Of a DNA stretch of 64,000 nucleotides, positions 16,407 to 55,045 are shown piece after piece. A program made the translations under genes and the position numbers. The DNA lies in contig MENI01000052.1 of NCBI GenBank assembly GCA_001768195.1, forward strand, positions 235-64,234, in the 5' to 3' direction. Within the stretch, counting starts at the first letter, position 1, and each line of letters begins with the position of its first letter. Source of the stretch: Bacteroidetes bacterium GWA2_40_15. GTDB lineage: Bacteria; Bacteroidota; Bacteroidia; Bacteroidales; VadinHA17. The notes below the pieces were generated by a model. The model had not been told where the DNA came from. It saw only the letters and a list, made by a program, of their open reading frames with translations, and made no database searches.

Positions 16407-16556
16407 GGCTGTTGAAAAAGTCTTTAAGTAGTTGTTTTTACCTTAGTGTTACTTTGTGCTCTACTTTGTGATCCTTTGTGGTTCAATGCTTTATTTTTTA
16501 CCACCAAGGTACTCAAAGGTTAACACAGAGGTTCACAAAGGACTTTTTCAACAGCC
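16407..16556. mobile_element. 150-bp MITE-like element, copy 1
   Basis: Perfect 16-bp terminal inverted repeats ggctgttgaaaaagtc / gactttttcaacagcc; near-identical inverted copy at 33467-33616. Confidence 0.9.
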
Positions 16557-16743
16557 GCAAACTTTTTTCATTCTATCCTGCAACGAAACTATGCTTATGT
16601 TAACGCATATGCCCGGAGGGGTTGAATAATGAACTCAGTATACCCGGTTGAAGTAAACCTGGTCCATTTAATTGTAAAGTTTATTATAAATTTCTAACTT
16701 TAAATACAGAATTCATCTATTCATCTACCAAAAATCGTTCATC

Positions 16744-17283
16744 ATGAAACAAAGGCATCCATACAGAAGCAGACAAATTGAAATTGTTAAAACAATCTTC
16801 ATTTCTTTGTTTATTATTTTTTCATTGGATCTCAATGCTCAGACGCCAACCAACTTCTCGGGCAGATGGGAGTTTGATAAGGCCAAAAGCGACAAGGATG
16901 AACGAGGGGATGCATCCTTTGATGGTGCAATTATTCTGGAAATAAAACAGAATACTGATACAATTACATTTACCAATACATTTTTCCTGCCGGGTAAGGC
17001 TGGTAAAACTTTACGGCCCGACTCATATCTGACTAACGGTATAGTGACACCTGATGAGTCCGGAATCGATCCCGCCAAAAAATTTGTAAAATGGTCCCCG
17101 GATAAGAAAATACTTACAACTAATTATGTCATGACAGCTACCATTGATGGAGTTGCGCAGGATTTCCTTACAGCAAAGACTTACAAACTCGATGAGAACG
17201 GAAAAACATTAGTTGTTGATGAGTTGAACAGAAGTAAGCTGAATGGAGAAAAAACAATCAAAAAAGTATATCAAAAAAAATAA
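16744..17283 (+). CDS. Hypothetical secreted protein (lipocalin-like beta barrel?)
   Basis: Signal peptide then NFSGRWEFDKAKS, resembling the lipocalin/FABP GxW start. Confidence 0.65.
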   Translation: MKQRHPYRSRQIEIVKTIFISLFIIFSLDLNAQTPTNFSGRWEFDKAKSDKDERGDASFDGAIILEIKQNTDTITFTNTFFLPGKAGKTLRPDSYLTNGIVTPDESGIDPAKKFVKWSPDKKILTTNYVMTATIDGVAQDFLTAKTYKLDENGKTLVVDELNRSKLNGEKTIKKVYQKK

Positions 17284-17316
17284 ATAATACTCTCCTCTAA
17301 AAGCAAGTTTAAGTTA

Positions 17317-17727
17317 ATGATCCAGTCTGTTTCCTTTGAAAAACATCTTATTGCACCCTGTGGTATGAACTGCGGGACCTGCATTGGCTATCTCCGGGAC
17401 AAAGACAAATGTCCCGGCTGCAGGATAATTTCTTCAGACAAAGCTATTATAGTCAATAGATGTATTATACCGGGATGCAGCTATCTGCAAAAGACAACAT
17501 CAAAATTCTGTTATGATTGTGAAAAATATCCCTGTCGGAGGATCAAAAACCTGGATAAAAGGTACCGTACAAAATATCGGACAAGTTTCATTGAGAACCT
17601 GACAATGATAAAAGAAAACGGATTGCACAGCTTTCTGGTTTTTGAAGCAAAGCGCAGGACTTGTAAAAATTGCGGATCTGTGTTAAGTGTCCACCGGGAC
17701 AATTGTATTAAATGTAACCAGATATGA
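17317..17727 (+). CDS. DUF3795 family cysteine-rich protein
   Basis: APCGMNCGTC, CPGCR, FCYDCEKYPC and ENLTMIKENG motifs. Confidence 0.85.
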   Translation: MIQSVSFEKHLIAPCGMNCGTCIGYLRDKDKCPGCRIISSDKAIIVNRCIIPGCSYLQKTTSKFCYDCEKYPCRRIKNLDKRYRTKYRTSFIENLTMIKENGLHSFLVFEAKRRTCKNCGSVLSVHRDNCIKCNQI

Positions 17728-18440
17728 TTAATAAGAAAGTATCCGAGATCAGGGATTTTTGTACCAGGAATTCAAACCAGGCCAACATTGAAAAATATTC
17801 AAGATACTTCAAAGATGGATTCAATGGTTACGGAATAGACCAGAAAGTATTTGAACAACAGAGAGATGCCTGGATCAATCTCTGGAAGAATGAAATGAAT
17901 CTTGATAAGTACCTGGAACTTGGAGATACCTTAGTCCGGATCGGTAAATACGAGGAAATCTCTTTTGCAATTTCATTTGTAGCCTCTGAAAGAAAAAACT
18001 ATTCCGAAAAAACATTCGATAGAATCGGTACATGGTTTGATTATGGAATAACAAACTGGGCAAATACAGATGTCCTGTGCATGCTGGTTCTATCTAACTT
18101 CTTAATCGACAAAGTTGTTCCCTATACAAAGCTACTGGAATGGACAGATTCTCATTCTGAATGGAAAAGAAGAGCGGTTCCTGTGACTCTGGTCGAACTG
18201 GTAAGGAAGGGACTGACCCCTGATGAGGCCATACCCCTGATTGAGCCTTTGATGTACGACAAATCAGAAAATGTTCAGAAAGGTATCGGGACTTTATTAC
18301 GCGGATTATGGAAGAGTCATCCTGAGAGAATTGAAGCTTTCCTTCTGAAGTGGAAAAATTCCTGCGGCAGATTGATAATTCAGTACTCTACAGAGAAAAT
18401 GGATAAAGAGTACAGGAAGAAATTCAGGAGAGAAAAATAA
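17724..18440 (+). CDS. DNA alkylation repair protein (AlkD-like HEAT repeat)
   Basis: NWANTD, WTDSHSEWKRRA and VQKGIGTLLR motifs; ATGA overlap with upstream gene. Confidence 0.8.
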   Translation: MINKKVSEIRDFCTRNSNQANIEKYSRYFKDGFNGYGIDQKVFEQQRDAWINLWKNEMNLDKYLELGDTLVRIGKYEEISFAISFVASERKNYSEKTFDRIGTWFDYGITNWANTDVLCMLVLSNFLIDKVVPYTKLLEWTDSHSEWKRRAVPVTLVELVRKGLTPDEAIPLIEPLMYDKSENVQKGIGTLLRGLWKSHPERIEAFLLKWKNSCGRLIIQYSTEKMDKEYRKKFRREK

Positions 18441-18448
18441 CTTCTTAT

Positions 18449-18528
18449 ACCGTTGGCTGAAGCCAACGGCAATTGAGAGGAAGAATCTCCCTTTTGGGCT
18501 GAAGCCAACTGTAATTGAGAGGAAGAAT
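18449..18528. repeat. REP-like cluster, family A
   Basis: 18449-18491 matches 15101-15143 at 42/43 nt in direct orientation; second degenerate unit follows. Confidence 0.85.
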
Positions 18529-18544
18529 ATACCTGGTGTTTTTT

Positions 18545-19843
18545 TTACTTCAGCCACTTATCAAACCAGTCAAACGCCTCTTTCTGCATATCGGAGTCAA
18601 ACTTGTGCTCGCCCGGGTAGAAGGTACATTTGTATCTGTCTGAAGCACCTGCTTTTTTGTATACCTCGCTGAGGATTTTGTCGGCAGCATTCATCTCCGG
18701 TACAGTATACAGATCGTCATTTGTATCATTCAGTACAAGAGTTGGAAGCGGAACCCTTAAACCAAGTATTTCGGGAAAATCCAGCTCATTGGGCAGTATT
18801 GGCACATAGGTCATCCATGTGTGAGTGAATGACTTATTGAGAACAAAGTCTTTCCATGTTGTCATGAATCCAACGCATACAGCACATTTGATCCTGCTGT
18901 CGAGTCCGCCTGTGAAGACTGTCCGCATACCCCCACCTGACAATCCCCCACAGCCTATCTTATCCTTTATCACATCTTTCCTGGCACTGAGGATATCCAG
19001 TGCAACCCTGTCTTCTGCCATAAAGACCCCCGGCCATGTTGTACCTGCGCTGAAAAGCGATTTTGCCATTATATGCTCATGTTCACCTGCCCAGCTGTTA
19101 TATTTTTCAATATTCTTCGGATCCTCAGGGTTGTTGTCATTAAGCCCATCTCTTTGCTGTTCAGGCACATCCTGCATCAACACTCTACGGCTTGCGAAGG
19201 GGAAGGCATCTGATACAAGCACAACGTATCCTCTTTTTGCTACCTCATTTGCCCATGCTCTTCCACTGTAGTAATTTGTCTGATGCTCTTTCATAAGTGG
19301 ATGCTGATCATCACCGGTCCGGGTGATCTTCCTGGTTCCAAAATACTTATTTCCACCATGATCATGAAATGCGAGTATGCCTGGTAAAGGAGTTTTTGCG
19401 TCTGCTGGCTTCAGGAGTATAGCATCAGTGGGACGACCATACGGCAGTCTCCATGTAAGTTCTTCAATATGAAGACCATCCCATATATATTGCTTCTTAA
19501 CTGTAACTTCAGGAGCTGATCCTATATTGGGAACAGCAAGCCTGTCTCTGACTTTTGCATCTGCAGCCTGGTGCCATTTTTTTATGTCCGTCCACTCTTT
19601 CCTTCGAAAAGAGAGCGATGGCATTTTATTATTGGCCAGGGATGTTGCCCATTCACCATATTGTCCTATTAAGCTGAGGTTTTCTTCTTGTGTCATTCTG
19701 TTAATATTTGTTTCTGAAATTATTTCGGGAAAGGGTATAGAACTTTCATTACCTGATGCCAGGCTTTCTGTGAATCTGCTGCCGGCAATACCTAATCCTG
19801 CCATTCCGGCATATTTGATGAATTTTCTTCTGCTGTTTTTCAT
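18545..19843 (-). CDS. Tat-exported alpha/beta hydrolase (dienelactone hydrolase/acetylxylan esterase-like)
   Basis: SRRKFIK Tat motif; FHDHGG, GGLSGGG nucleophile, YPGEHKF. Confidence 0.85.
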   Translation of the reverse strand: MKNSRRKFIKYAGMAGLGIAGSRFTESLASGNESSIPFPEIISETNINRMTQEENLSLIGQYGEWATSLANNKMPSLSFRRKEWTDIKKWHQAADAKVRDRLAVPNIGSAPEVTVKKQYIWDGLHIEELTWRLPYGRPTDAILLKPADAKTPLPGILAFHDHGGNKYFGTRKITRTGDDQHPLMKEHQTNYYSGRAWANEVAKRGYVVLVSDAFPFASRRVLMQDVPEQQRDGLNDNNPEDPKNIEKYNSWAGEHEHIMAKSLFSAGTTWPGVFMAEDRVALDILSARKDVIKDKIGCGGLSGGGMRTVFTGGLDSRIKCAVCVGFMTTWKDFVLNKSFTHTWMTYVPILPNELDFPEILGLRVPLPTLVLNDTNDDLYTVPEMNAADKILSEVYKKAGASDRYKCTFYPGEHKFDSDMQKEAFDWFDKWLK

Positions 19844-19932
19844 ACCAGGTTAAATTAGCTGATTTATCACAATGAAGGTACAATAAAAAATTTTTAACCG
19901 CAAAGCAGAATCTTGACTGATAGCTTTTTCCA

Positions 19933-20037
19933 GCTACAAAGAGTTCCACTGAGGTTCACAGAGTTCCACAGTTCCACAGAGTGAAGAGGATTGATCAATT
20001 GATAACTCTGTGCTCCTCTGGATTTCCTCTGTGTAAG
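19933..20037. repeat. Gene-less GxxExxY-type end pair (CACAGAG variant, degenerate)
   Basis: Tandem ccactgag/ttcacagag/ttccacagag units followed by inverted ctctgtg units. Confidence 0.65.
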
Positions 20038-20167
20038 TTCTTAAATATATGAAGCTAAGACCTTCCAGTGTTAATAACAGACAGATATTAAGTCAATGGT
20101 GTTTGAAGGATTTATTTCTTCAACCTAATTCTTACCTTTATATCAAACCTTCTTCTATACTGAAAAA

Positions 20168-22444
20168 ATGAAATACTTTAAATTTTCGTTGCTGCTGATT
20201 CTGGTAATCCTTCTATGGATGTGCAGAGAATCTTCTAAGAAGGGTTCTTTTACAAAGAATGATTTTATTGATCCTCCGATATATTACTGGCCCAGACCAT
20301 TGTATTTCTGGAATAATGCAACTGTCACCGCAGATGTACTGATTGAACAGATGCAGTCACTCAGGGATAAATGCGGATACGGAGGATTTGGGGTTGTCCC
20401 GTTCGGTAGGGACTTCAGTCCTGAATATTTGTCAGAGGAGTATCTGAAACTATATGGTACAATGCTGGAAAAAGCAAAGGACCTGGGTATGACAATAAGC
20501 CTTTATGACGAATTCGGTTTTCCCAGCGGATCGGTAGGGGCTTTTGCCGAAGGTGATGGGAAACCACGTTTCCGGCAGAAATATCCTGATCAGACTATAC
20601 AGAGGCTCGATAAAGCAGAAGAAGAGATAACAGGCCCGGTTATTTACAGGAAAAAGGTCCCGGAAGGAAAACTTATGGGTGCTGTTGCAATGGACTTAAA
20701 GAGTAAGGAACGAATCGATATTACAGGAAGTGTTACTGATGGTATGCTTAAATGGGATGTCCCGTCAGGGAAATGGAAAATCATGTTCTTCAATTGTGTG
20801 ATTGATGGTAATCCGTTAGCAGATTATCTAGATCCTGAAGCTGTGGGTTATTTTACAAAAATGGTACATGATGTTTACTATGACCGTTTCAAAGATTATT
20901 TCGGTACAGTTATTTCCGGAACTTTTTTTGATGAGCCTTCAATGTATCGTGCACAATTCCGGATGTGGACGCCCATGTTTAATGAAAAATTCACCGGTAA
21001 ACATGGTTTCAGTCCGGTCACACTTTACCCTGCTTTATGGTATGATATTGGTGACGAAACATGGTCAGCCCGTAATTATATGTTTGGTTTTCGTGCGGAA
21101 TTGTATTCAGAGGGATTTCATAGGGTAGTCAGTGACTGGTCTGTAGCTCATGGAATAACAGCTACAGGTCACACGGCTCCGGAAGAAGCAATTATTCCGG
21201 CAAACGGACCGGGTGATCTTATGAAGTCATTTAAATACCTTGAGATCCCCGGAATTGATAAGATAGGTGGCCACCGGCCTGCAGAAAAGTTCTATAAATT
21301 AGTCAGTTCCTCAGCTAATAACTGGGATAAGAAACTTGTGATGTCGGAGACATTTGGTGCAATGCCAAATTACGATGAACCGGGAGACCTGGCGTGGAAT
21401 GATATTTGGTCGATTGCCAATGACCAGTACACCAAAGGAATAAATATGCTCATCCCTCATGCTGTCTGGTATGATAATACAAAGGTCACCTATAAACCTG
21501 AGCTTTCATACCGGAGTACGCTATATGCCGACAGCCTTAAGGATTTCACAACTTATCTCTCCAGGCTTAATGTGATTTTGCAGTCGGGAGGAAGACATGT
21601 TGCGGATATTGCAGTACTTTATCCTGTGCATTCTCTTTTAGGTGATCATTATTTCTATACAGAAACAGGTCCTGCCAATGTCGACGGATGGGTTGATCCC
21701 GAAAACAGCTTCTTCAATGATGCTGTCTCAAAGATAGACTATGTTGATATCGGGGGTTGGCTTATGAATGGTAACGGCCTCGATTTCACCTATATTCACC
21801 CTGAAGTTCTGGATGAAAAATGCTCTGTTGCCGGGAGCAGGCTTGAATTGAAAAACAGTACAAACTATGAGAATTACAGCGTACTCTTACTTCCTTCCTG
21901 TTATATGCTTTCTCTGAGCAACCTGAGGAAAGTGGTTGAATTTTACAATTCCGGAGGAATGGTTGTCTTTACCAGCCGTCTTCCGCATAAGTCATGTGAA
22001 ACCGGAAAGGATATGGAGGTTGACAGTCTCATCAGATCTGTTTTCCCCGGACTGGAGGATGATGCCTGGGAAATGAAAGAAAATGAAAAAGGAGGCAAAG
22101 CCTTCTTTATGCCCGATCCTGATGCAGTTGGAATCTCGGAAATTTTATATGGTTCCGGACTGTATTTTGATGTCAGCTATCCGTTAAACCCTGATATTCA
22201 ATATATTCATAAAGTCGTTGACAACAGGAATGTCTATTTCTTTGCCAATTCAGGGAAGAGCGGTATTCAAACTGAAGTAACGCTCAGAGGTAAAATCAAG
22301 GTTGAAGAATGGGATCCTCACACAGGTGAAATCAGGAAGGCTGAAACCAGATATTCTGAAAATAAGTCTTCAGGTTCAAATTCAACAGTTGTTGAAATAA
22401 ACCTCAAGCCTTATAATTCAATATTCCTTATTGAAAAAGAGTAG
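20168..22444 (+). CDS. GH106 (alpha-L-rhamnosidase)-like glycosyl hydrolase
   Basis: PRPLYFWN, YLSEEY, LYDEFGFPSG, FFDEP, IPGID and MSETFG motifs; probable lipoprotein signal. Confidence 0.75.
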   Translation: MKYFKFSLLLILVILLWMCRESSKKGSFTKNDFIDPPIYYWPRPLYFWNNATVTADVLIEQMQSLRDKCGYGGFGVVPFGRDFSPEYLSEEYLKLYGTMLEKAKDLGMTISLYDEFGFPSGSVGAFAEGDGKPRFRQKYPDQTIQRLDKAEEEITGPVIYRKKVPEGKLMGAVAMDLKSKERIDITGSVTDGMLKWDVPSGKWKIMFFNCVIDGNPLADYLDPEAVGYFTKMVHDVYYDRFKDYFGTVISGTFFDEPSMYRAQFRMWTPMFNEKFTGKHGFSPVTLYPALWYDIGDETWSARNYMFGFRAELYSEGFHRVVSDWSVAHGITATGHTAPEEAIIPANGPGDLMKSFKYLEIPGIDKIGGHRPAEKFYKLVSSSANNWDKKLVMSETFGAMPNYDEPGDLAWNDIWSIANDQYTKGINMLIPHAVWYDNTKVTYKPELSYRSTLYADSLKDFTTYLSRLNVILQSGGRHVADIAVLYPVHSLLGDHYFYTETGPANVDGWVDPENSFFNDAVSKIDYVDIGGWLMNGNGLDFTYIHPEVLDEKCSVAGSRLELKNSTNYENYSVLLLPSCYMLSLSNLRKVVEFYNSGGMVVFTSRLPHKSCETGKDMEVDSLIRSVFPGLEDDAWEMKENEKGGKAFFMPDPDAVGISEILYGSGLYFDVSYPLNPDIQYIHKVVDNRNVYFFANSGKSGIQTEVTLRGKIKVEEWDPHTGEIRKAETRYSENKSSGSNSTVVEINLKPYNSIFLIEKE

Positions 22445-22456
22445 TCGTCAGACTTT

Positions 22457-23530: not shown

Positions 23531-23539
23531 AAACTGTTT

Positions 23540-26735: not shown

Positions 26736-28016
26736 TTATTTTTTTTCGTAAATTATATCCTTCGATCCCGAAATGGTATTGCCCCCGGCTGTAACTTTTG
26801 AACTTTTCTTTCCAACGATGATCGCTGTTTTCTGATTCCCTTTTCCTGTTGAACGGATTGTATTGTTTTTAATAACAATATCATGAGTTTCTCCGCCTAC
26901 ATAGAATCCTGCTGACTCCTTAACTGTTCCGTTGTTTTCAATAGTATTTCCTGTAAATGTGTTTCGGTGACCTGCGTTCTGTTCATTTTCATTACGAAAC
27001 AGTACACCGTGGTTTGCATTTTCGTAAACACGATTGTTTTCGAAGATATTGTCGGTATCCTTATGTCCGATCGAAATTCCATTGTCGAGGTTGGCATAAA
27101 TGGTATTATTCCTGAAGACACCATTCTGTACTCTCCAGCATAAGTAGAGTCCGTCGCCTTTATTGTGATGGCTTATGCAGTTTTCAACAATTGGTCTGTC
27201 GGATCCGGTACCCGGATGAAAACCGAGTCCGTCGCCGTAGGATGCCTCGCAACCTTTAAGTGTAATATTTTCAGTAACCTGCAAGCTGAAAGAGTCGCCA
27301 TTGAATTCATTGACCTGTACATTTTCGACAAGACAGTTTTTCGATTTATGAATATAAACACCTCCTCCGCGACAGCCGTTGATATAGTCGTTGGTGGCTT
27401 TGTTTCCTTCTATTAGCAGGTCCGATATTTTTACATTTTGTGCATTGACAGCCTCAATTATTGAGCAGCCGTTTGATACTACTCCGTTTAATTCAGCAAC
27501 ATAATCATATACTGTTCCGTTGTCAAAATAGATTACATTATTTGTGATATCTGTTATTACTGCCGTTGTGACATCCCATCCCTGGTTATGGGCGTCATCG
27601 AACAGCTGAATGCCCATTCCCTTTTTAAATCCGCTGGCATCTTTTACAACAGCTTTCATCATTCCCCAGTCGGCATCTATTATGTAGCTGGTTTTAAATC
27701 CATTACATTTTTTAAGTAGTGATGATTTCCCTGATCCTTTCAGTGTTATATTGTCAGATAACCTTACAGGACCGGTTACATCGTAGGTTCCCGGATTCAG
27801 TTTAACAGTTCCTCCTCCTCTTGTTTTAACTGCATCAACTGCTATCTGTATTGCAGCTGATGTAAATCCGGGTATGTCAGCATCAGATCCGCCTACAGTG
27901 ATAAGCTGTTCCGCATATCTGACATCCACCAGTCCGATTCCCTGTCCGATGCTTGTTAAGCTTAGACATAATAATACGATTGCTAATACTGTGACAGATG
28001 TAAACTTTTGTTTCAT
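26736..28016 (-). CDS. Right-handed parallel beta-helix protein (pectin lyase-like fold)
   Basis: AIQIAVDAV..GGGTVKLNPGTY N-terminus; repeated ENC/NNTI/GDG beta-helix turns; signal peptide. Confidence 0.85.
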   Translation of the reverse strand: MKQKFTSVTVLAIVLLCLSLTSIGQGIGLVDVRYAEQLITVGGSDADIPGFTSAAIQIAVDAVKTRGGGTVKLNPGTYDVTGPVRLSDNITLKGSGKSSLLKKCNGFKTSYIIDADWGMMKAVVKDASGFKKGMGIQLFDDAHNQGWDVTTAVITDITNNVIYFDNGTVYDYVAELNGVVSNGCSIIEAVNAQNVKISDLLIEGNKATNDYINGCRGGGVYIHKSKNCLVENVQVNEFNGDSFSLQVTENITLKGCEASYGDGLGFHPGTGSDRPIVENCISHHNKGDGLYLCWRVQNGVFRNNTIYANLDNGISIGHKDTDNIFENNRVYENANHGVLFRNENEQNAGHRNTFTGNTIENNGTVKESAGFYVGGETHDIVIKNNTIRSTGKGNQKTAIIVGKKSSKVTAGGNTISGSKDIIYEKK

Positions 28017-28030
28017 AACTTGTTAAATTT

Positions 28031-28282
28031 AATTAAGAGTTAAAATAAATATTTAACCACAAAGGCACTCAAAGTGATACACGAAGGCACACAAAGGGAT
28101 AATTAAAAAACAACTCTTTTTATGCCAGCTTTTAAATGTCTAACATTAAAATTTACTAATAAACCTAATTTGCAGTTAGATAATTTTAAATACGTCTTCT
28201 ATATTCATTTACTAAATTTACTTTGAGTTCCATTGTGCAATCCTTTGTTGCCTTTGTGGTTAAAAAATTTTAACCCTTAATT
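28031..28282. mobile_element. Gene-less GxxExxY-type end pair inside an outer 16-bp inverted repeat
   Basis: Inner perfect IR tttaaccacaaaggca (28052-28067) / tgcctttgtggttaaa (28249-28264) with tandem CACAAAG units; outer IR aattaagagttaaaat / attttaacccttaatt (15/16). Confidence 0.75.
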
Positions 28283-28303
28283 GGCATTATTAGTTTATGT
28301 TTA

Positions 28304-30232
28304 TCATTTTTGTTTCATCTCTTCTATCAATTCTCCTATTAATATCCGGCTTTTATCCCATGTTTCTGCTTCAAAGCTCCATACATCAAGATTGCCTATC
28401 GAATTGGGACCAAATGGTTGCCTAATAATGGAGTTAACAATAGAATCAACTCTGATATTATTGCCGTCAGCTTCAGCAAGGAGCCTCATAAATTCATATT
28501 CCTGTACTCCGTCGCGCATGGTTTTAAGACGGATTGAAGGACATGGACCATTTACATTTGGAATTACTCCCGGGGCATATATCATAAGTGCGCTTCCATT
28601 TATCTTTTTAAAAGTGAACTCTGCCTCCTTCTCTGATCTCTCTTTGGAAGCATCTTTCCACGATTCAGTGTCGTACCATCCGTTTACCCATCCTGCACCT
28701 GCACCCCAGCTGAGCCAGGAAAAGGTGCGGTATTTCCAGCAGCACCAGCTTATTGCCCTGTCGTTCACCAGTGGAAGATCGAGAATTGTAGAGCTGCCCA
28801 CCCAGCTGTTTATTTTGCTCTCATAAAGCATAGGTCCGTAAAGCCATACCTTTATACCCATTTCCTGGTACTTCCTGATTGTATTGTAGTCATATTCAAT
28901 TGTATGCGATGCCCATGAGCTTATTGAGTTCTTAACTATCTGCAGTGCTTCCTCTGTGTATCCTCCGTCAATCCTGAACAAGGCTTCAGGGTAATATTCC
29001 CTGAACATATCACCATAATAAACCATCCTGCTCCATGCTTCAGGGAAATATGATTCATCGAGACCATTCAGATATACTGTGATATCTGTTTTTTCAGGGT
29101 CAATCAGGGATTTGAAATGGGTGCGGACGTTTTTAATAAAATCAATATATACAGCCCTGTTTTGCGGTTCCCGTTCAACATCAGGTTTACCGATGTCTGG
29201 CCATCCTCTGGTCCCGTGTTTGCCATAAACATCGAATGGCAGCACAAATGTTTCGATTGGTTCTCCGTAGCCCGGGCCATATTCGTAACCATATTCAGCG
29301 GTAAATGCTTTTCCGGTGAAATATTTTGAAAGGCGCTCATCAACCTGTTTCCAGTCAATGTCTGTTTTTCCGATCCGGTTCGTCTTCAGATCCGGTTCGT
29401 AAGTGGGGTCGAGCATAGCGATCCTGTTGCGTTTAAGTAGTTGATAAACAGATAATTCCTGTTTTTCATTCATGCTTTTCATGAATCCTTCATGCTGAAG
29501 GCTTGCTTTGAACCTGTTCTTGTTAGGTATAGCAAAATCCCATACTGAAAGTTCCACCGGGATCTGCTTTGTTTCACTGCCGATTGTTACAGAAAGCATT
29601 GTATTATATATCCCCGGCAGGGTCTTCTCTTTTTCAAAAGGAACATACTGATCAATCCAGACTATCATTGATTTCTGATTATCAATCCTGTTATTGAAAT
29701 CGGGCAGCCACAGAGGATAGGTCCAACGCCTTGTTACGAGTGATGAGTCATCCTGTATGTATTGAAAAGGGATGAGTGCATCCGGATACCATCCGTTGCC
29801 GAGTGAAGCTACCGGATAACCTGTGCTTGGAGATTTTACCTCCACTGACCATTCAAGGAAAAGTTCAGGTTTGATGGCGAATTGTATGTTATTCCCTTCG
29901 AAAGCCGGCATCTCAATCCTGATATTATCAAGGATATCAGTGGTATTATTGGATATAACAAGCTGGAATGATATGTATTCCCCTCTTGCGGAATGCAGTG
30001 TAACCTTTTTTCCGTCGAAGATCAGGTTTTTTTTCAACATATCTTCCTGTTGTACAGGGGCATCCTTAAGAATAAGAAACCTGTTATCAATAATTGTATT
30101 TGAAGTTGGATCAAGCCTTACGGATGAAGGCAAAACGTAGATGCCCCAGTCTGATGAGTTTTCAGCTTTATCGCCTGAATTACAGCTGAATGCAAAAACA
30201 GAGCCAAGCAGAATAAGGGTAAGGTTCTTCAT
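28304..30232 (-). CDS. DUF4091 (GH123-like) lipoprotein
   Basis: Lipobox AFS-C; ARGEYISFQ, WYPDAL, LDE and PSIRLKTMRDGVQEYE motifs. Confidence 0.75.
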   Translation of the reverse strand: MKNLTLILLGSVFAFSCNSGDKAENSSDWGIYVLPSSVRLDPTSNTIIDNRFLILKDAPVQQEDMLKKNLIFDGKKVTLHSARGEYISFQLVISNNTTDILDNIRIEMPAFEGNNIQFAIKPELFLEWSVEVKSPSTGYPVASLGNGWYPDALIPFQYIQDDSSLVTRRWTYPLWLPDFNNRIDNQKSMIVWIDQYVPFEKEKTLPGIYNTMLSVTIGSETKQIPVELSVWDFAIPNKNRFKASLQHEGFMKSMNEKQELSVYQLLKRNRIAMLDPTYEPDLKTNRIGKTDIDWKQVDERLSKYFTGKAFTAEYGYEYGPGYGEPIETFVLPFDVYGKHGTRGWPDIGKPDVEREPQNRAVYIDFIKNVRTHFKSLIDPEKTDITVYLNGLDESYFPEAWSRMVYYGDMFREYYPEALFRIDGGYTEEALQIVKNSISSWASHTIEYDYNTIRKYQEMGIKVWLYGPMLYESKINSWVGSSTILDLPLVNDRAISWCCWKYRTFSWLSWGAGAGWVNGWYDTESWKDASKERSEKEAEFTFKKINGSALMIYAPGVIPNVNGPCPSIRLKTMRDGVQEYEFMRLLAEADGNNIRVDSIVNSIIRQPFGPNSIGNLDVWSFEAETWDKSRILIGELIEEMKQK

Positions 30233-30318
30233 AAAGGTTCAATATTTGAAAATATCTGCCTGGTACTGACAGGCTTTTTACAGGATTAATTAACTGATTT
30301 AAAATTAGTAATAAAAAT

Positions 30319-30485
30319 TAATATTGAGTCTACTCCGAAGAGTATATTTTTTTGCCACCAAGGCTCCAAGGCACAAAGTTACACCAAGAATAAGTCATTG
30401 AAAGATAAGCCCTTGGTGAACCTTGGTGTCTTTGTGTCTTCGTGGCAATTTCTTTTTTGGATTTATCGGAGTGGACTCAATATTA
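30319..30485. mobile_element. Gene-less GxxExxY-type end pair inside an outer 20-bp inverted repeat (MITE-like)
   Basis: Outer taatattgagtctactccga / tcggagtggactcaatatta (19/20); inner ttgccaccaaggctccaaggcacaaag... / ...ctttgtgtcttcgtggcaa (30352-30448). Confidence 0.8.
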
Positions 30486-30564
30486 GAAGGTATATTTCTG
30501 GTATCTGATAATTCGAATCAGTATATTTATGGCTATATGTATATATACTTTTCATGCTGATAAT

Positions 30565-30679
30565 ATGAATTCAAAAGAAAGAGTACTTCATCCTCGGTCC
30601 CGGACATACATATATCCAGGCTGATACTCCACTGGAGAACATTGTTGCCATGTATGACACTGCCTTTTCCTATATATAG
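30565..30679 (+). pseudogene. Uroporphyrinogen decarboxylase-family gene remnant (N- and C-termini fused, interior deleted)
   Basis: MNSKERVL joined out of frame to FILGPGHTYIQADTPLENIVAMYDTAFSYI*. Confidence 0.75.
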
Positions 30680-30749
30680 ATTCAGTAAATATTTCCAGAT
30701 GAAATTTTTGTTATATTGTGTCCATCAAAAATCTTTTTAATCAATTAAA

Positions 30750-32054
30750 ATGACGTTAAAAAATTACACTGTGCACAGGCCGGTTCAGGCAATGTGGATG
30801 ACAGTAGGAACAATCGGATTGTTCTTTTTTATTTTCGGATTTGTAACATGGCTCAACGGAATCCTTATTCCCTATCTGAAGATATCTTGTGAACTGAACC
30901 ATTTTGAATCGTACCTGGTAGCGTTTGCATTTTATGTTGCTTACGTTATAATGGCAATACCATCCTCATGGATTCTGAAAAGAACAGGTCTTAAATCAGG
31001 TATGATGTACGGATTATTTGTCATGGCAGTTGGGGCGCTTTTCTTTGTACCGGCTGCGATGACCAGAACCTATGGGATGTTTCTTACCGGCCTTTTTGTT
31101 ATGGGTACAGGGCTGGCCATACTTCAGACTGCCGCAAATCCATATATTACATTGCTCGGGCCGATCGAAAGCGCAGCACAGAGGATCAGCATTATGGGTA
31201 TCTGCAATAAATCTGCAGGGATAATCGCCACTTTCCTGTTTGGCGTTATGGCTCTCAGCGACGGCGATGCCCTGCTTGCAAGCCTTAGAAGCATGGATGA
31301 TATACAGAGAGCCACAACTCTTGATGAACTGGCTTCAAGAGTGGTGATTCCCTACCTCGGAATGGCGATAATTCTGGTCCTGATAGGCATTTTTGTCAAG
31401 AAATCAGGATTGCCTGAGATTGATCCCAATGGTAAGAATAAGGAGGAGGATGTTAAGGAGAGCGGTGCCCGGTCCTCTATCTTCCAGTATCCCTACCTGC
31501 TTCTGGGAGTCATTGCGATATTTTGTGATGTAGGACTGGAGATTGTAGCCGGTGATACAATAATAAGCTACGGACTTAGTCAGGGAATACCCATTTCCAT
31601 TGCAAAACACTTTACATCACTCGTTATGATTGCCTCAATAATTGGTTATACTATCGGAGTTATTGCAATACCACGTTTTATATCACAAAGTAAAGCTCTC
31701 CGTACGTGCGCAGTACTGGGTATAATTCTTACGGCTCTTGCAATAAGTACACCAGAAACGGCTTCAGTAGTCTTCATTGCACTGCTGGGGATGGCCAATT
31801 CGCTGATATGGCCTTCAGTATGGCCACTTGCAATAGATGGTCTGGGACGGTTTACCCGGATTGGCTCATCTCTGCTGATAATGGGTAACCTGGGTGGTGC
31901 CCTGGTCCCTTTACTCTACGGAAGGCTGGCAGATGTATTTAATCCGCAGCAGGCCTATCTGGTTTTAATACCGTGCTACTTCTTTATTTTATATTTTGCA
32001 ATGCATGGACATAAGCTGGGAAAAAGAACAAAGCCGGTGCCGGAACCATTGTGA
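30750..32054 (+). CDS. FucP/GluP-family MFS sugar transporter
   Basis: FFIFGFVTWLNGILIP, LQTAANPY, GMANSLIWP motifs; about 12 TM helices. Confidence 0.9.
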   Translation: MTLKNYTVHRPVQAMWMTVGTIGLFFFIFGFVTWLNGILIPYLKISCELNHFESYLVAFAFYVAYVIMAIPSSWILKRTGLKSGMMYGLFVMAVGALFFVPAAMTRTYGMFLTGLFVMGTGLAILQTAANPYITLLGPIESAAQRISIMGICNKSAGIIATFLFGVMALSDGDALLASLRSMDDIQRATTLDELASRVVIPYLGMAIILVLIGIFVKKSGLPEIDPNGKNKEEDVKESGARSSIFQYPYLLLGVIAIFCDVGLEIVAGDTIISYGLSQGIPISIAKHFTSLVMIASIIGYTIGVIAIPRFISQSKALRTCAVLGIILTALAISTPETASVVFIALLGMANSLIWPSVWPLAIDGLGRFTRIGSSLLIMGNLGGALVPLLYGRLADVFNPQQAYLVLIPCYFFILYFAMHGHKLGKRTKPVPEPL

Positions 32055-33431: not shown

Positions 33432-33466
33432 CCCCTCTAAGAAAATGATATTCATTTAATAAAGGG

Positions 33467-33616
33467 GGCTGTTGAATAAGTCCTTTGTGAACCTTTGTGT
33501 TAACCTTGGAGTACCTTCGTGGTAAAAAACAAAGCATTAAACCACAAAGGCTCACAAAGTAAAGCACAAAGTAACACTAAGGTAAAAACAACTACTTAAA
33601 GACTTTTTCATCAGCC
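33467..33616. mobile_element. 150-bp MITE-like element, copy 2 (inverted relative to copy 1)
   Basis: Reverse complement of 16407-16556 with about 9 substitutions by manual alignment. Confidence 0.9.
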
Positions 33617-33730
33617 CCCATAAGAGGGGGTGAGGCGGAAACAAAGTCTGGGAAAATTTGTTAGTTTAACAAGTTGATTTTGATAAGTTTGTTTTAGTAC
33701 TATCTATTTAAGATTTAATAGTACCAAAGT

Positions 33731-49317: not shown

Positions 49318-49450
49318 AATCGTCTTACAGGTGCAAAGATAGCATGATTTACAATAACGTGATGGCTGAACATATATTTCAAGGGATCGGTTATATTCAT
49401 AAACATCTGATTTCACACACTTGCGCGGTTTTAAAGATCAATTGAAACAT

Positions 49451-49618
49451 GGAGATCCCTCGCTTCGCTCGGGATGACAGGTAAGTTTAAAGGGGGAGAG
49501 GAAGAAGCGGCGATTCAGAAAAACTGAAGCTATTTATCATTTATTACTGCTGAATCGCCGCTTCTTCCTCCTTGAACAATAAAAACGATTGTCATCCCGA
49601 GCGAAGCGAGGGATCTCC
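49451..49618. repeat. 168-bp nested palindromic element, family C
   Basis: Perfect 29-bp outer IR ggagatccctcgcttcgctcgggatgaca (49451-49479 / 49590-49618) and perfect 21-bp inner IR (49498-49518 / 49550-49570). Confidence 0.92.
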
Positions 49619-49691
49619 CCCTGGTTATGCAATACTTAATTATAATTATACTTCTATCCAATAATTTATTAATTTAGTATTATAATCTTTT

Positions 49692-50150: not shown

Positions 50151-50241
50151 AATGCGGTGATAGGTACTCTGTAATCGGTTTTCGGAAAACAGTGATCGGT
50201 AAGTGTTCTGATAAACCATTGCGCCGTTGTGCCATTTATTT

Positions 50242-50298
50242 AACCCACCCCTAACCCCCCGACGCTATCGGTCGGGGCAGGCTCTCCCAGGAGGGGAA
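50242..50298. repeat. ACCCCTAACCC...GGAGGGGAA palindrome interrupted by a second hairpin
   Basis: aacccacccctaacc [ccccgacgctatcggtcggggcaggct] ctcccaggaggggaa. Confidence 0.6.
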
Positions 50299-50343
50299 CT
50301 GTAAACACCTGCCTTTGTGCCGGTGCTTCCCAACGTTTTTTCC

Positions 50344-51267
50344 CTATGCTGTTTTCCCTGTGAGAGTGAGGGCTTCATCAACCGGTTCGATGCGGCCTCT
50401 CAGTTGCGACATATATAAACCGGCCACAACAACTATCATCCCTATCAGGTTCTGAATAGTAAGTTTATCTCCAAGCAGAACAAAGGAGAATAATGCTGTA
50501 AAAAGAGGTATGCTGTTTGTGAAAACATTGGCCTTCAACAGACCAAGGTTCCTTACCGAGTATGCAAAAAGGATAAATGCCGCACATGAGGCAAACAGAG
50601 CAAGCTGCATTACAGGCAGAAACATCCTGAAGTTTAAAGTAAGCCCTGCGAAAGATTTTATTTCCATCGTAAGGAAGAGCGGAAGAAACAGGATCGCCCC
50701 GATAACATTCTGAACATTTACGATATATATCGGACTGTAATGATCAACAAGCCTGCTGAGGGTCAGGTTGTAACCTACTGCAGCAAAGACAGCCAGAAAT
50801 ATCAGGGCCAGCCCCTTGATATTATATGAGATGCTGCCATCTTTATTCATAATAAATACCAGCACACCTATAAAAGATAGTATAATACCCAGGTAGTTTA
50901 TGACTTTTAGTTTTTCTTTGAAGAATATCCAGGCTCCTATGGTGGCAAATACAGGAATTGTTGAGATCAGCACCGAGCAAACTGTTGCTGATACATAAGT
51001 AAGGCCATAACTTTCGCCAAGGAAATAGATAAAAGGTTCAAATAATGCCATCATCAGGAAGAGCTTGTAATCTTCCTTGCGGATCTTCACAAACCGTTTT
51101 GTGATTGTCAGGTAGGATGTCAGGAGAATCACTGCGAATACAAGCCTTAAAAAGACTATTGTAATTGGCCGGAAGTTTTCATTGGCCATCTTGAACCAGA
51201 TGAATGAAAAGGCCCAGAAGATCATAGCCAGTATGACAGCCCCGTAAACCCTGATTTTATTATTCAC
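50344..51267 (-). CDS. DMT/EamA family transporter
   Basis: About 10 TM helices; IFWAFSF, FLRL, FFKEKL and LLGDKLT motifs. Confidence 0.92.
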   Translation of the reverse strand: MNNKIRVYGAVILAMIFWAFSFIWFKMANENFRPITIVFLRLVFAVILLTSYLTITKRFVKIRKEDYKLFLMMALFEPFIYFLGESYGLTYVSATVCSVLISTIPVFATIGAWIFFKEKLKVINYLGIILSFIGVLVFIMNKDGSISYNIKGLALIFLAVFAAVGYNLTLSRLVDHYSPIYIVNVQNVIGAILFLPLFLTMEIKSFAGLTLNFRMFLPVMQLALFASCAAFILFAYSVRNLGLLKANVFTNSIPLFTALFSFVLLGDKLTIQNLIGMIVVVAGLYMSQLRGRIEPVDEALTLTGKTA

Positions 51268-51327
51268 TTTGATAGAAGCCTGTTGTCTGTTTAAGGCGCT
51301 GCGAATTTATCTAAAAAATGTTACAGA

Positions 51328-51358
51328 TTTGGTAGTGAATCATAAATTATTATATTTG
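51328..51358 (+). promoter_or_regulatory. Bacteroidota sigma-A promoter for the etf operon
   Basis: TTTG-N19-TATATTTG. Confidence 0.7.
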
Positions 51359-51438
51359 CCGCCGTTATGTTTTGGTTAATGGCAATTCTGACCATTAATC
51401 TGTTTATAGTAAGTAAAATAACTAATATCAGACTTTAA

Positions 51439-52188
51439 ATGAAAATTCTGGTTTGCATCAGTAATGTTCCCGATACAACTACAAAGATCAGATTTGCTCC
51501 GGGAAACACTTCAATTGACATTGCCGGTATCCAGTGGGTAATCAATCCGTGGGATGAGTTATCACTTACACGTGCCCTGGAACTTAAAGATGATGCTGCA
51601 AATGGAATAAAATCTGTAACTGTGGTACATGTAGGTCCTGCAGCTTCTGAACCAACCATTCGCAAGGCTCTTGCAATTGGGGCTGACGATGCTGTAAGAG
51701 TGAATGCCGAACCCCGGGATGCTTATTATACAGCAGCACAAATTGCCGAAGTGGTTAAAAAAGAACAGTTTGATATCATTTTATGTGGAATCGAGTCGAG
51801 CGACTACAACGGATCAATAGTAGGAGGAATGGTCGCTGAATTTCTGGGCGTGCCTTCAGTTTCATCTGTATCAGGCATTAAATTTGAGAATGGACAGCCT
51901 GTTATGACACGCGAGATTGACGGAGGAAAAGAGACTGTGACAGTTCCGGTTCCTTTTGTAGCCATCGTACAGAAAGGAATAGCAAAAGAACCAAGAATTG
52001 CAGCAATGAGAGGGATTATGATGGCTCGGTCAAAGCCTGTTAAGCTGGTCGAACCTGTTGCTGTTGAATCTCTTACACAGGTCCTGGAATATGAAAAACC
52101 TGCTCCGAGAGCTGCCTGTAAGTATATCGATTCTGAAAATCCGGCTCAGCTTATCGGACTTTTACAGAATGAAGCCAAGGTAATTTGA
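51439..52188 (+). CDS. etfB: Electron transfer flavoprotein beta subunit
   Basis: KILVCISNVPDT, INPWDE, ALAIGAD and REIDGG motifs. Confidence 0.96.
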   Translation: MKILVCISNVPDTTTKIRFAPGNTSIDIAGIQWVINPWDELSLTRALELKDDAANGIKSVTVVHVGPAASEPTIRKALAIGADDAVRVNAEPRDAYYTAAQIAEVVKKEQFDIILCGIESSDYNGSIVGGMVAEFLGVPSVSSVSGIKFENGQPVMTREIDGGKETVTVPVPFVAIVQKGIAKEPRIAAMRGIMMARSKPVKLVEPVAVESLTQVLEYEKPAPRAACKYIDSENPAQLIGLLQNEAKVI

Positions 52189-52218
52189 ATTTAGTAAGAA
52201 ACAGTTAATCAATACAAT

Positions 52219-53187
52219 ATGTCAGTATTAGTATATACAGAAAATTGGGACGGTAAATTCAAGAAACTGTCATTTGAACTCGTCTCTTATGCAGCCGGCG
52301 TTGCAAAAATGACCGGTAGTTCAGTAACTGCATTATCAGTTGGCAGGGTTGAAGATGCCGAACTTAAAAAGCTGGGAGATTACGGAGCAGCAAAGATCGT
52401 GAATGTGAACAATGATCAGCTCGCCGTGTTCGATAGCCAGGTTTATGCAGGAGTGTTAGCTGATATTAGTGCCGGGAAGGGATCAAAAATCATAATCCTG
52501 GCTAACAATAATACAGGCAAAGCAATTGCACCGCGTCTGTCGGTGAGGCTGAAGGCAGGAGTGGGTTCCGGTGTCAGCAGGCTTCCGCTTAATCTTAATC
52601 CTTTTACTGTTTATAAAAGGAGCTACTCAGGAAATGCATTTGCACACATGGAAATAAACTCAGATATTAAAATACTGACTCTTGCCCAGAACTCATTCGA
52701 CATTGCTTCAACTCCAAATACTGCAACAATTGAAAACACCTTTGTTACCATTGAAGCCTCGCAGGTGAAAACGGTTGTGAAGAATGTTGAAAAGCAGACC
52801 GGGAAGATGCTTTTAACCGATGCCGATATTGTTGTTTCAGGGGGACGCGGAATGAAATCTCCCGATAACTGGGGACCGATTGTTGAGCTGGCTGACCTGC
52901 TCGGAGGCGCAACAGCATGTTCACGACCTGTTTCCGATGAGGGATGGAGACCTCATACCGAACATACCGGGCAGACTGGCAAAATAATTGCCCCGAACCT
53001 TTACATCGCCGTTGGTATCTCCGGTGCAACGCAGCATCTCGCAGGAATAAGTTCCTCAAAATATATAGTAGCTATCAACACCGACAAGGACGCTCCGATT
53101 TTCGAAGCAGCACAGTATGGTATAGTTGGCGATGCACTCAAAGTGCTTCCAAAATTAGTGGAGGCAGTAAAAGAAATTAAGAAATAG
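52219..53187 (+). CDS. etfA: Electron transfer flavoprotein alpha subunit
   Basis: [25 protein letters not shown] and [11 protein letters not shown] motifs. Confidence 0.96.
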
Positions 53188-53191
53188 TTAT

Positions 53192-53650
53192 TGCCACAAA
53201 GGCGCAAAGTCGCAAAGAATTGAAAGATGACACAACTTCTATCATCTGAAGAAGAAAGAATTGGGAAAGAAATAGTTAATGCATCATTTATTGTTCATAA
53301 AGCCTTGGGCCCCGGATTACTTGAGAAAGTATATGAGGTTTGCTTAAGTCATGAATTAAGAAAAGCAGGTCTAAATGTAGACAGACAAATTGATATTCCT
53401 ATCGTTTATGATGGGATAACATTTGAGGAAGGTCTGAGACTTGATCTGTTGGTTAAAAGTAAAGTAATAATTGAATTAAAGGCGGTTGATATCGTAAATC
53501 CTGTATGGGAGGCTCAGATTATAAGCCACCTTCATTTAACCGGGAAACGACTTGGATATTTGATAAATTTTAATGTACCACTTATAAAGGATGGAATACG
53601 CAGATATGTCAAAACATAATAAATCTTTGCGCCTTCGCGCCTTTGTGGCA
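53192..53650. mobile_element. Putative GxxExxY element: single nuclease-fold gene between 27-bp inverted repeats
   Basis: tgccacaaaggcgcaaagtcgcaaaga (53192-53218) vs reverse complement of 53624-53650, 25/27 identical; lies between etfA and the FadF-like gene. Confidence 0.75.
53227..53619 (+). CDS. GxxExxY protein (PD-(D/E)XK nuclease superfamily)
   Basis: [13 protein letters not shown] (GxxExxY), RLDLLV..VIIELK and LGYLINF motifs; 130 aa. Confidence 0.95.
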
Positions 53651-53683
53651 TTAAAAAGGTAATCCCAAACGAATATTTACAGC

Positions 53684-55003
53684 ATGCTGAAACAAATCAT
53701 ATTTACAATTACACTGCTGATAACTATCGGCGTCTTTTCTTATACAATTGACAGACTCATAAGCTTTTTCAGATTCACCCGGCCTGCATTCCCGGTAAAA
53801 GATATTGGAAAAAGAATAATGGTCACCCTCGCAGTTGCCATGGGACAGACCAAGATATTCCGCAAGCCTGTTATCGGACTGGCTCATGCGCTGGTTTTCT
53901 GGGGTTTCTGTGTAATTCTATTCGGAAGCATAGAAATGGTTATCGACGGATTGACCGGTACTGAAAGAGTATTAAAGGTACTGGGGGCCATCTATAATTT
54001 CCTTATGGCAACAGGCGATATTTTCGCTCTCATCGTTGCAATTTCAATCATTATATTTCTTTCACGCCGCCTCTTCTTTCACATCAAAAGGTTCGAAGGG
54101 ATTGAAATGAAGAAAAGGTCGCATACCGATGCCAACATTTCTCTCTCTTTTATACTACTGTTGATGATATCTCTTATGACAATGAATATCGGATATGTTG
54201 GATATGAAAAACTCTCCGGTGGGGATATCGCAGGGATATACCCTGTTGCAACCGTACTGGTAACACTTTTTAAAGGAATGAATGCTGAAAGCCTCAAAAT
54301 CGTTTACGAATCTTCGTGGTGGACGCATATTCTTTTAATCTTTTTCTTTGCAAATTATCTTCCTTATTCAAAGCATTTTCATGTATTCATGTCGGTACCA
54401 AATGTATTTCTTTCGAGGCTCGATCCTCTGGGAAAGATTCCGAATATGGATAATGTGACCCGTGAGGTTAAGCTTATGCTTGATCCTGCAACTGCTTTTA
54501 CGGCAGCGCCCGAAGGAGTTCCGGTTGAAAGGTTTGGGGTAAAGGATGCTGAAGATGCCTCCTGGAAGAACTATTTCGATTCATTGTCTTGCACCGAATG
54601 TGGCCGATGTACCTCAGTATGCCCGGCAAACATTACAGGCAAGAAGCTGTCACCCAGGAAGATAATGATGGACCTGCGTGCCAGGATGAAAGAAAAAGGT
54701 CCGCTGATGGTTAAGAACGGGAGAGACTTCAGTGATAACAGGTCACTGCTGAGAGACTTCATTTCGGAGGAGGAGCTGTGGGCGTGTACAACATGTAATG
54801 CATGTGCTAAGGAATGTCCTATAAATATCAATCATCCGACATTAATAATTGATATGCGCAGATATCTTGTTATGGAAGAAGCTTCGGCTCCCGGAGAGCT
54901 GAAAGCAGTTTTTAATAACATTGAAAATAACGGTGCCCCATGGCAATACTCTGCTGAAGACAGGCTGAATTGGGCACGGGATCTGGAGATAATCATTAAA
55001 TAG
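53684..55003 (+). CDS. FadF-like membrane Fe-S oxidoreductase, N-terminal part (TM domain + 2x4Fe-4S)
   Basis: HALVFWGF, YLPYSKHFH, CTECGRCTSVCP and CTTCNACAKECP motifs. Confidence 0.9.
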   Translation: MLKQIIFTITLLITIGVFSYTIDRLISFFRFTRPAFPVKDIGKRIMVTLAVAMGQTKIFRKPVIGLAHALVFWGFCVILFGSIEMVIDGLTGTERVLKVLGAIYNFLMATGDIFALIVAISIIIFLSRRLFFHIKRFEGIEMKKRSHTDANISLSFILLLMISLMTMNIGYVGYEKLSGGDIAGIYPVATVLVTLFKGMNAESLKIVYESSWWTHILLIFFFANYLPYSKHFHVFMSVPNVFLSRLDPLGKIPNMDNVTREVKLMLDPATAFTAAPEGVPVERFGVKDAEDASWKNYFDSLSCTECGRCTSVCPANITGKKLSPRKIMMDLRARMKEKGPLMVKNGRDFSDNRSLLRDFISEEELWACTTCNACAKECPININHPTLIIDMRRYLVMEEASAPGELKAVFNNIENNGAPWQYSAEDRLNWARDLEIIIK

Positions 55004-55045
55004 TCTCTGTGGCTCTCTGTGCTTCTCTGTGGAACTCAGTGTAAC
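55004..55045. repeat. Solo GxxExxY-type right end (CTCTGTG variant)
   Basis: tctctgtgg ctctctgtg cttctctgtgg aactcagtgtaac. Confidence 0.65.

Follow-up and report, generated by a model that had tools for sequence, protein, structure and literature searches.

In a 64,000-nucleotide stretch of the genome of Bacteroidetes bacterium GWA2_40_15 (contig MENI01000052.1, positions 235 to 64,234; hereafter the window, in whose coordinates positions are given), six intergenic sites carry tandem arrays of a 7-bp word, CRCNRAG, that resemble the ends of a small gene-bearing element encoding a GxxExxY protein. Our analysis suggests that these sites are decayed or gene-less members of a widespread, apparently undescribed palindromic family, the complete members of which are cassettes with a GxxExxY nuclease gene between inverted arms. 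The derivation of gene-less copies from nuclease cassettes is supported by gene remnants inside the copies, while mobilization by the nuclease is what we infer. Taken as a whole, a history in which cassettes lose their gene, some of the gene-less forms then multiply, and insertion is promoted by the nuclease seems to us somewhat better than an even proposition.

The full-length cassette occupies positions 53188-53654 on the plus strand. Its two inverted arms (53188-53218, plus; 53624-53654, minus) have three words each, are 90% alike, and lie 405 bp apart, enclosing a gene at 53227-53619. The encoded protein of 130 amino acids matches TIGR04256 with 135.6 bits (cut-off 35) and PF13366 with 129.7 bits (cut-off 22); no other Pfam match was found for the gene between the arms, and searches with tblastn and the family model identified it as the single intact GxxExxY gene in the genome. 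Sixteen alignment columns are invariant among 41 sequences, including G30, E33, Y36, D73, E83 and K85, and the window protein keeps D73, E83 and K85, the D...ExK catalytic residues of PD-(D/E)XK nucleases. An AlphaFold2 model of the protein (predicted local distance difference test score, pLDDT, 95.2) has the restriction-endonuclease-like fold. The nearest folds in Foldseek were Cas4 (4ic1, 4r5q), lambda exonuclease and Hjc (1gef), all weak matches (E 2e-3 or worse, template modeling scores 0.44-0.51), and a search of solved structures by sequence returned nothing meaningful, the best hit being an unrelated Pcc1 chain at E 0.068. From its conserved residues and predicted PD-(D/E)XK fold, the nuclease looks active. 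The entry for PF13366 in the superfamily survey of Steczkiewicz et al. 2012 (PMC3424549) gives its function as ‘Unknown’. The resident protein is 66-77% identical to proteins from Ignavibacteriota, Cytophagales, Marinifilum and Flavobacterium records and at most 51% identical to 40 proteins sampled from its own order, and it forms a long branch in the order-level tree. Judged by these comparisons, the resident gene likely arrived horizontally.

Cassettes have lost this gene repeatedly. When a profile of 41 GxxExxY proteins was run against all 217,379 stop-to-stop peptides of the genome, only four matches fell below E 0.01, namely the resident gene and three fragments, every one of them between or beside arms; all other matches had E > 5. 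One fragment, a C-terminal stretch of 29 amino acids on the minus strand at 28109-28195 (profile i-E 1.4e-9; TIGR04256 positions 89-116, E 3.2e-5), lies within the 28.1-kb copy, an internally deleted GxxExxY cassette at 28051-28265 (arms 28051-28098, plus, and 28220-28265, minus) that keeps 10 N-terminal and about 30 C-terminal codons, on the minus strand. The other two are at C85:4749-4820 (profile E 2.3e-6) and C76:110751-110828 (profile E 1.4e-3), on further contigs of the genome. In the C76 copy, 25 N-terminal codons are fused to the last nine; a C83 copy, like that on C76 a member of the AACCACAAAG family described below, has kept its N-terminus in a shifted frame; and at C85:496 a GCCAC-type arm is followed by 27 N-terminal codons (C85:554), with the right arm's last word coming immediately after them. 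Remnants are thus present in the window at 28.1 kb, on C76, on C83 and at two places on C85, or four to five loci in total. Since their breakpoints differ, the deletions were independent, and since the window and C76 copies are not derivable from each other, at least two separate deletions must have occurred in cassettes at different loci. Cassettes therefore lose the gene by internal deletion in place and leave gene-less palindromes behind, and the 28.1-kb copy is such an intermediate. This origin is seen in the remnant copies; those with short spacers lie outside this evidence.

The linkage of gene and arms extends far beyond this genome. At the first loci examined, all 13 of 13 genes had word arrays on at least one flank. 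Inverted repeats between the 150-bp flanks, scored against 100 shuffles, exceeded all shuffles for 28 of 41 GxxExxY genes of the same order and for 48 of 79 testable loci in a cross-phylum set. The latter comprises 80 loci with record titles naming at least ten phyla and spans Bacteroidota, Ignavibacteriota, Chloroflexota, Acidobacteriota, Planctomycetota, Verrucomicrobiota, several proteobacterial classes, cyanobacteria and others. At least two outward words were found on both sides of the gene at 58 of these 80 loci, and at least three words in the flanks at 76 of 80, compared to 20 of 80 for the reversed pattern. The proteins nearest to the resident one (69-77% identical) belong to other orders and another phylum, and those in Cytophagales, Marinifilum and Flavobacterium records have the same GCCAC arms with 8-bp spacing; gene and arms thus seem to move as one unit. 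The expectation that end variants would follow GxxExxY clades was borne out by 28 labeled genes, for which the protein tree requires 11 changes of word type, compared to 13-19 in 500 label shuffles. Gene and arms hence travel together across the order and many phyla, and arm type follows protein clade. The claim that the gene-less sites are relatives of the GxxExxY ends is supported.

In the window, all six sites named by the original prediction hold tandem CRCNRAG-type words at the positions given (profile coordinates are contig positions minus 234), and all are intergenic. The uniform architecture that had been proposed for them, an inverted pair with (A/G)CCAC termini, is realized in part: word arrays are present throughout, but the termini at 16.4 and 33.5 kb face the center, the left arm of the 19.9-kb pair is degenerate, and the solo end at 55.0 kb is indeed a solo arm but terminates in ACAC rather than CCAC. 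The spacers measure 7, about 22, 121, 19 and 8 bp at 16.4, 19.9, 28.1, 30.4 and 33.5 kb, respectively. The 8-mer CACAAAGG occurs 14 times in the window, compared to 2.45 expected, a number reached in none of 100 shuffles.

The copies at 16.4 and 33.5 kb are gene-less composites. The first (16403-16556) contains arms at 16440-16487 (minus) and 16495-16542 (plus), as located by nhmmer, with central CCAC termini, and its two word arrays are surrounded by an outer hairpin, GGCTGTTGAAAAAG.. / ..CTTTTTCAACAGCC. The second (33467-33620; arms 33481-33528, minus, and 33537-33583, plus, also within the outer hairpin) is its twin in reverse orientation and 94% identical, both being 154-bp hairpin-bounded units; a copy at C59:5176-5301, 97% identical to this family, sits inside a 154-bp hairpin-bounded unit as well. 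Elsewhere in the order, some genomes have alternating arms arranged in tandem at intervals of 100-170 bp, in some cases next to a GxxExxY gene (G101:C151:17-667, with a gene at 847-1188; G037:C141, C189 and C233; G195:C11:25084-25443). If such tandem runs then lost their outer arms, ‘inward’ pairs like those at 16.4 and 33.5 kb could result. The 19.9-kb copy (19917-20040), a gene-less pair of the CACAGAG family, has its degenerate left arm at 19944-19982 (plus) and its right arm at about 20004-20037 (minus), ending in GTGTAAG, with an ACAC terminus, and an orphan TTTTTAACCGCAAAG terminus lies beside it at 19917-19931. At 30.4 kb (30349-30449; arms 30349-30390, plus, and 30410-30449, minus) we found a pair without a gene that belongs to the GCCAC family, so that its arms are of the type seen around the resident gene; the pair is nested within another inverted repeat, TTGAGTCTACTCCGA.. 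/ ..TCGGAGTGGACTCAA. The solo arm (55004-55048, minus strand; CACAGAG family) has four words and occupies a 61-bp gap between two genes on the same strand.

A family of this kind should recur throughout the genome, which was surveyed over 4.77 Mb in an assembly that is 99.98% complete. A strict regular expression (at least three CRCNRAG words with gaps of at most 16 bp) detected 77 clusters (35 + 42), compared to 0-1 in each of three block-shuffled genomes. The genome-wide profile count called for by the original prediction, made with an nhmmer profile of four-word arms (E < 0.1), yielded 102 arms, distributed over 72 loci as 30 clear pairs (termini outside in 24, central in 6) and 42 single matches, most of which have a degenerate or interrupted partner when read by eye. 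The window contains 7 of the 72 loci, while about one would be expected from its length. An arm consists of an A/T run, a CCRC or ACAC terminus and then three to four CRCNRAG words, spaced 8-13 bp apart and most commonly 9-10 bp, about one helical turn. Although open reading frames (ORFs) of at least 100 amino acids cover 88% of the genome, 62 of the 72 loci do not overlap one, in line with the intergenic location seen in the window. BLAST clustering of the 72 loci gave five families: subfamily A (24 loci, about 146 bp, AACCGCAAAG arms); the CACGGAG family (10 loci); the AACCACAAAG family (7 loci, with the window copies at 16.4, 28.1 and 33.5 kb); the CACAGAG family (6 loci, with the 55.0-kb copy); and the GCCAC family (4 loci, with the 30.4-kb copy), to which the arms of the resident gene correspond. 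Outside these remain one pair and 19 singletons, several of which read as GCCAC-type arms. At C112:53604-53750 of this genome (G000 in our collection), a four-word CACGGAG arm passes straight into a head-to-tail array of repeated CCCCACG/CCTCACG heptamers.

Some of the gene-less forms have multiplied as such in this lineage. The 24 subfamily-A copies lie in unrelated flanks and share their sharp ends and a single loop sequence; independent deletions would not leave the same loop in each. For 15 of them, the nearest neighbor is 89-95% identical over about 140-150 bp, and nearest-neighbor identity reaches 94-97% in the family of the 16.4- and 33.5-kb copies, compared to only 77-79% for coding DNA of the closest species in the collection.

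We surveyed 201 genomes of the order, at least 90% complete and mostly one or two per family, for the gene (E <= 1e-10) and for a three-word CRCNRAG pattern, which covers these words only and so misses other word types. The gene was present in 117 genomes and the pattern in 121. As had been predicted, repeat abundance correlates with the gene (Spearman 0.61; median of 14 matches with the gene compared to 0 without): no match was found in 60 of the 84 genomes that lack the gene, and at least one in 97 of the 117 that have it. The reversed pattern was near zero except in one genome.

A number of observations, concerning gene distribution, arm similarity, site occupancy and the outer hairpin, weigh against the proposed history as a whole. 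In the survey, ten of the 84 genomes without the gene have at least ten matches (224 in G039), and 20 of the 117 with the gene have none. Where genomes of one family differ in gene content (17 families), the gene-bearer has more matches in eight, fewer in four and equal numbers in five. Within the genome itself, a single gene is set against at least five arm families; among the BLAST families, of which five have four or more loci, four of these five lack an intact cognate gene, and for subfamily A (24 loci) and the CACAGAG family (6) neither gene nor remnant was found in this genome. The proposed non-autonomous family is partly supported: remnants document derivation by internal deletion in some copies, and most of the BLAST families have no intact cognate gene here.

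Arm similarity points in the same direction. It had been proposed that the two ends of a copy co-evolve. Arm identity within copies is indeed higher (0.644) than for permuted partners (0.594; 28 of 5000 permutations reach the observed value), and the dominant word is common to both arms in 20 of 30 pairs, compared to 11.8 expected. Within BLAST families, however, an arm matches the partners in other copies equally well or better (0.683 overall; in subfamily A 0.667 compared to 0.616), the own partner is the best match in only 1 of 30 pairs, and the two arms of subfamily A differ in words and spacings. The ends thus match by family and not by copy, with no sign of ongoing co-evolution. The association of word type with protein clade is likewise no proof that the protein reads the words, since simple linkage alone predicts it.

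Presence/absence polymorphism had been anticipated, and sites do differ between species. In G008, the orthologous intergenic regions are only 58 bp and 76 bp long and lack the 19.9-kb and the 28.1-kb element, respectively. The syntenic region of G235 is without window 27944-30705, so that the 28.1- and 30.4-kb elements and the intervening ORF are all gone; this segment, which is present in G008, includes an ORF of 642 amino acids (28304-30232) with no Pfam match. The two elements may mark a variable segment or a recombination hotspot. At the position orthologous to window 33432-33620, G235 (C40, about 30200-30840) has a DUF559 gene between CCCCTCTCCC/GGGGAGAGGGG-type hairpins, while G008 has only GGGGTGAGGC-type hairpins. 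No excision or insertion with exact ends was seen in G008 or G235, relatives that are 77-79% identical and in which boundaries are blurred; their intergenic DNA is too diverged for base-by-base alignment. The Logan contigs of four public runs either bridge the elements unchanged (across 28.1 and 30.4 kb) or break there, and no clean empty site was found among them. Loose contig ends at 30347, 30378, 30412 and 30459 reflect other copies in the metagenome runs. An apparent ‘skip’ from 28074 to 28206 in one run resembles a further copy, with 29 other letters separating the two sides. A target-site duplication was not definable, as the flanking A/T runs are themselves inverted and hence read as part of the repeat. 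Positions are accordingly not conserved between species, and copies are intergenic whatever the orientation of the flanking genes.

Many of these findings would be expected if the word-array palindromes were the primary repeat, of the repetitive extragenic palindromic (REP) type and either self-spreading or kept, and GxxExxY were a homing-type selfish gene that lands at their center, leaving most gene-less copies as unoccupied targets. The gene always sits at the palindrome center, nesting at apices is common (an outer hairpin that may be empty or filled, mini-palindromes in arms, the nested 30.4-kb copy), the gene is missing for most families, recent multiplication took place without a cognate gene, and many arrays exist in ten genomes without the gene. 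On the other hand, the remnants at four to five loci indicate deletion in place, arm type goes with protein clade even between phyla, as expected if the arms are part of the moving unit, and arrays are entirely missing from 60 of the 84 genomes that lack the gene. We thus consider this explanation unlikely as the main account, though it and the derivation from cassettes can both hold.

The outer hairpin raises a further alternative. This 16-bp stem, GGGGCTGTTGAAAAAG / CTTTTTCAACAGCCCC, bounds the 154-bp composites, and the youngest copies carry it and belong to families that lack an intact cognate gene. It also exists empty, with a loop of 2-3 nt (G000 C116:13984-14015), or filled with word arrays in either polarity or unrelated hairpin-rich inserts; further sites are C77:9027-9384, C67:7870, C23:4657 and C89:23933-24324. 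Its appearance is that of a landing pad or of a small mobile element in its own right. The recent copies (16.4 and 33.5 kb and most of subfamily A) could therefore have been moved by the mobilizer of this hairpin, with the arrays inside carried along as leftovers of an earlier invasion. Of the 24 subfamily-A copies, 16 have one or both halves of the hairpin, and the eight whole copies that lack it all belong to the group of nine whose nearest neighbor is only 73-79% identical. As the two youngest families spread as composites within this hairpin, the GxxExxY protein may have had no part in their recent spread. Nonetheless, no long autonomous element, gene or candidate transposase with such ends was found, as hairpin pairs within 6 kb are 31-391 bp long, and only two of the six window sites would be accounted for. 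We also considered the hairpin as the end of a DUF559 element and rejected this, because it does not occur within 500 bp of any of 11 full-length DUF559 genes. On balance, an independent hairpin mobilizer is a doubtful explanation, though one we take more seriously than homing into a pre-existing repeat. Smaller palindromes of 16-20 bp (TCCCGAGTACTCGGGA and CCCGATAGCTATCGGG types) lie inside a left-arm word in some copies and are missing in sister copies (for example G000 C123:54700-54720, C2, C78, C87, C26 and C88:91300; also C83:31200). This suggests a nested mobile unit of even smaller size.

It is far less probable, indeed very improbable in our view, that the arrays are host-maintained sites, such as terminators, RNA-stability hairpins or binding sites of nucleoid or regulatory proteins, and not mobile DNA. 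Their strictly intergenic location, the A/T runs beside the arms and a strong hairpin potential (z -4 to -7.6 in most subfamily-A copies) would suit such a role. The orientation of flanking genes, however, is at background level (51 tandem, 4 convergent and 13 divergent of 68, compared to 72/14/14%), which makes a terminator role unlikely, and there is no bias with respect to transcription (6 co-oriented, 8 anti-oriented). Moreover, the closest species do not have the sites in common, counts vary between 0 and 311 inside one genus, a gathering-threshold search of the window returned no Rfam match, and gene remnants lie inside copies. With RNA parameters, the word-sense strand, whose 5' arm has the CRCNRAG words, is the more stable fold in 19 of 24 subfamily-A copies, by a mean of 5.8 kcal/mol; this difference fits G-T wobbles on one strand, but how the elements are oriented bears no relation to flanking transcription, and the copies are related by descent.

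Returning to the nuclease cassette as the origin of these sites, we propose that the GxxExxY protein recognizes the words, or a hairpin or cruciform that they can form, and promotes the insertion or copying of the cassette. The target would probably be the apex of a pre-existing palindrome. Such apices appear favored because nesting is seen at every level, with the gene in the arms, arms in the outer hairpin, mini-palindromes in arms, and the 30.4-kb copy within another inverted repeat. Gene-less copies might be moved in trans, or they might be relics. The strongest form of this proposal, that GxxExxY nucleases are the engine of an undescribed kind of prokaryotic mobile DNA, with words that serve as a recognition code diversifying with the protein and with insertion into palindrome or cruciform apices, is one we put forward tentatively, as its chances appear somewhat worse than even. 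If true, genomes would accumulate gene-less hairpins by this route as proteobacteria accumulate REPINs (REP doublets forming hairpins), and a large orphan family of many phyla would gain a function.

PF13366/TIGR04256 is a very large family with no assigned function, which now has a genomic context resembling that of a mobile element. Its genes form the coding core of a repeat-bounded cassette that decays to gene-less palindromes, dozens to hundreds per genome, and this context suggests a role for the family that can be put to the test. It likewise accounts for a type of intergenic repeat, found in Bacteroidota and other phyla, at which assemblies break and by which genes within operons are set apart. 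Should the nuclease move the arms, it might be a source of sequence-programmable DNA-binding or DNA-cutting modules. In our literature searches, we found neither an account of these arrays nor a role proposed for GxxExxY, though the supplements of papers could hold relevant tables.

The genome harbors a second small-nuclease cassette family that uses the same kind of intergenic site. Genes for DUF559, a Vsr-like PD-(D/E)XK protein, likewise lie between hairpin repeats, are multi-copy and have left many fragments, with 33 matches in G000, about 11 of them full-length, compared to one GxxExxY gene; in G235, such a cassette occupies the 33.5-kb orthologous position. They differ in protein family and in their G/C-rich CCCCTCTCCC-type hairpins, which are not phased words. 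An intergenic, G/C-rich hairpin-type repeat at window 50225-50300 (..CCCACCCCTAACCCC..GGTCGGGGCAGG..) is like the flank repeats of DUF559 cassettes and unrelated to the word arrays. Intervening sequences with ORFs in 23S rRNA genes have a small ORF within a long stem, but the window elements are not in rRNA genes. The short tandemly repeated repetitive (STRR) sequences and small dispersed repeats of cyanobacteria are made of tandem heptamers and contain tiny nested palindromes, whereas the words described here are 8-13 bp apart and not head to tail. In homing, the endonuclease cleaves the allele that lacks its gene, and repair then copies the gene into the cut; of the features seen here, only the central position of the gene is consistent with this.

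The closest parallels are with REPINs and their REP-associated tyrosine transposases (RAYTs) and with insertion sequences (IS) and the miniature inverted-repeat transposable elements (MITEs) derived from them. REPIN and REP elements with RAYT transposases are treated in the articles by Bertels & Rainey 2011 (PMC3116915; PMC3337134), and a REP unit, as characterized in PMC3733652, has a conserved head, GTAG or CGTC, on a short and imperfect palindrome. As in REPIN/RAYT systems, a few-copy gene lies between inverted repeats, gene-less inverted doublets are dispersed in the same genome in intergenic positions, copy number correlates with gene presence, and inheritance looks largely vertical, with decay after gene loss. 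However, the enzyme here has a PD-(D/E)XK fold and is not an HUH/Y1 (IS200-like) transposase, the arms are three to four phased 7-bp words over 35-45 bp and not one short palindrome, several arm families accompany a single gene, and the gene remnants reflect in-place decay of cassettes, which is outside the REPIN model. The likeness to IS/MITE pairs includes terminal inverted repeats, sharp ends with unrelated flanks, nested insertions, and internally deleted non-coding derivatives that outnumber coding copies, as the remnant copies illustrate. In contrast to them, the gene is PF13366 and no recognized transposase is present, the arms consist of words in tandem arrays, and the whole cassette measures only about 470 bp; a target-site duplication could not be defined. 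The layout thus resembles both systems but departs from the defining features of each in enzyme family or repeat form, and we do not class the family as a member of either. If the nuclease does move the arms, the two would form a partnership of repeat and enzyme that parallels REPIN/RAYT with an enzyme of another fold.

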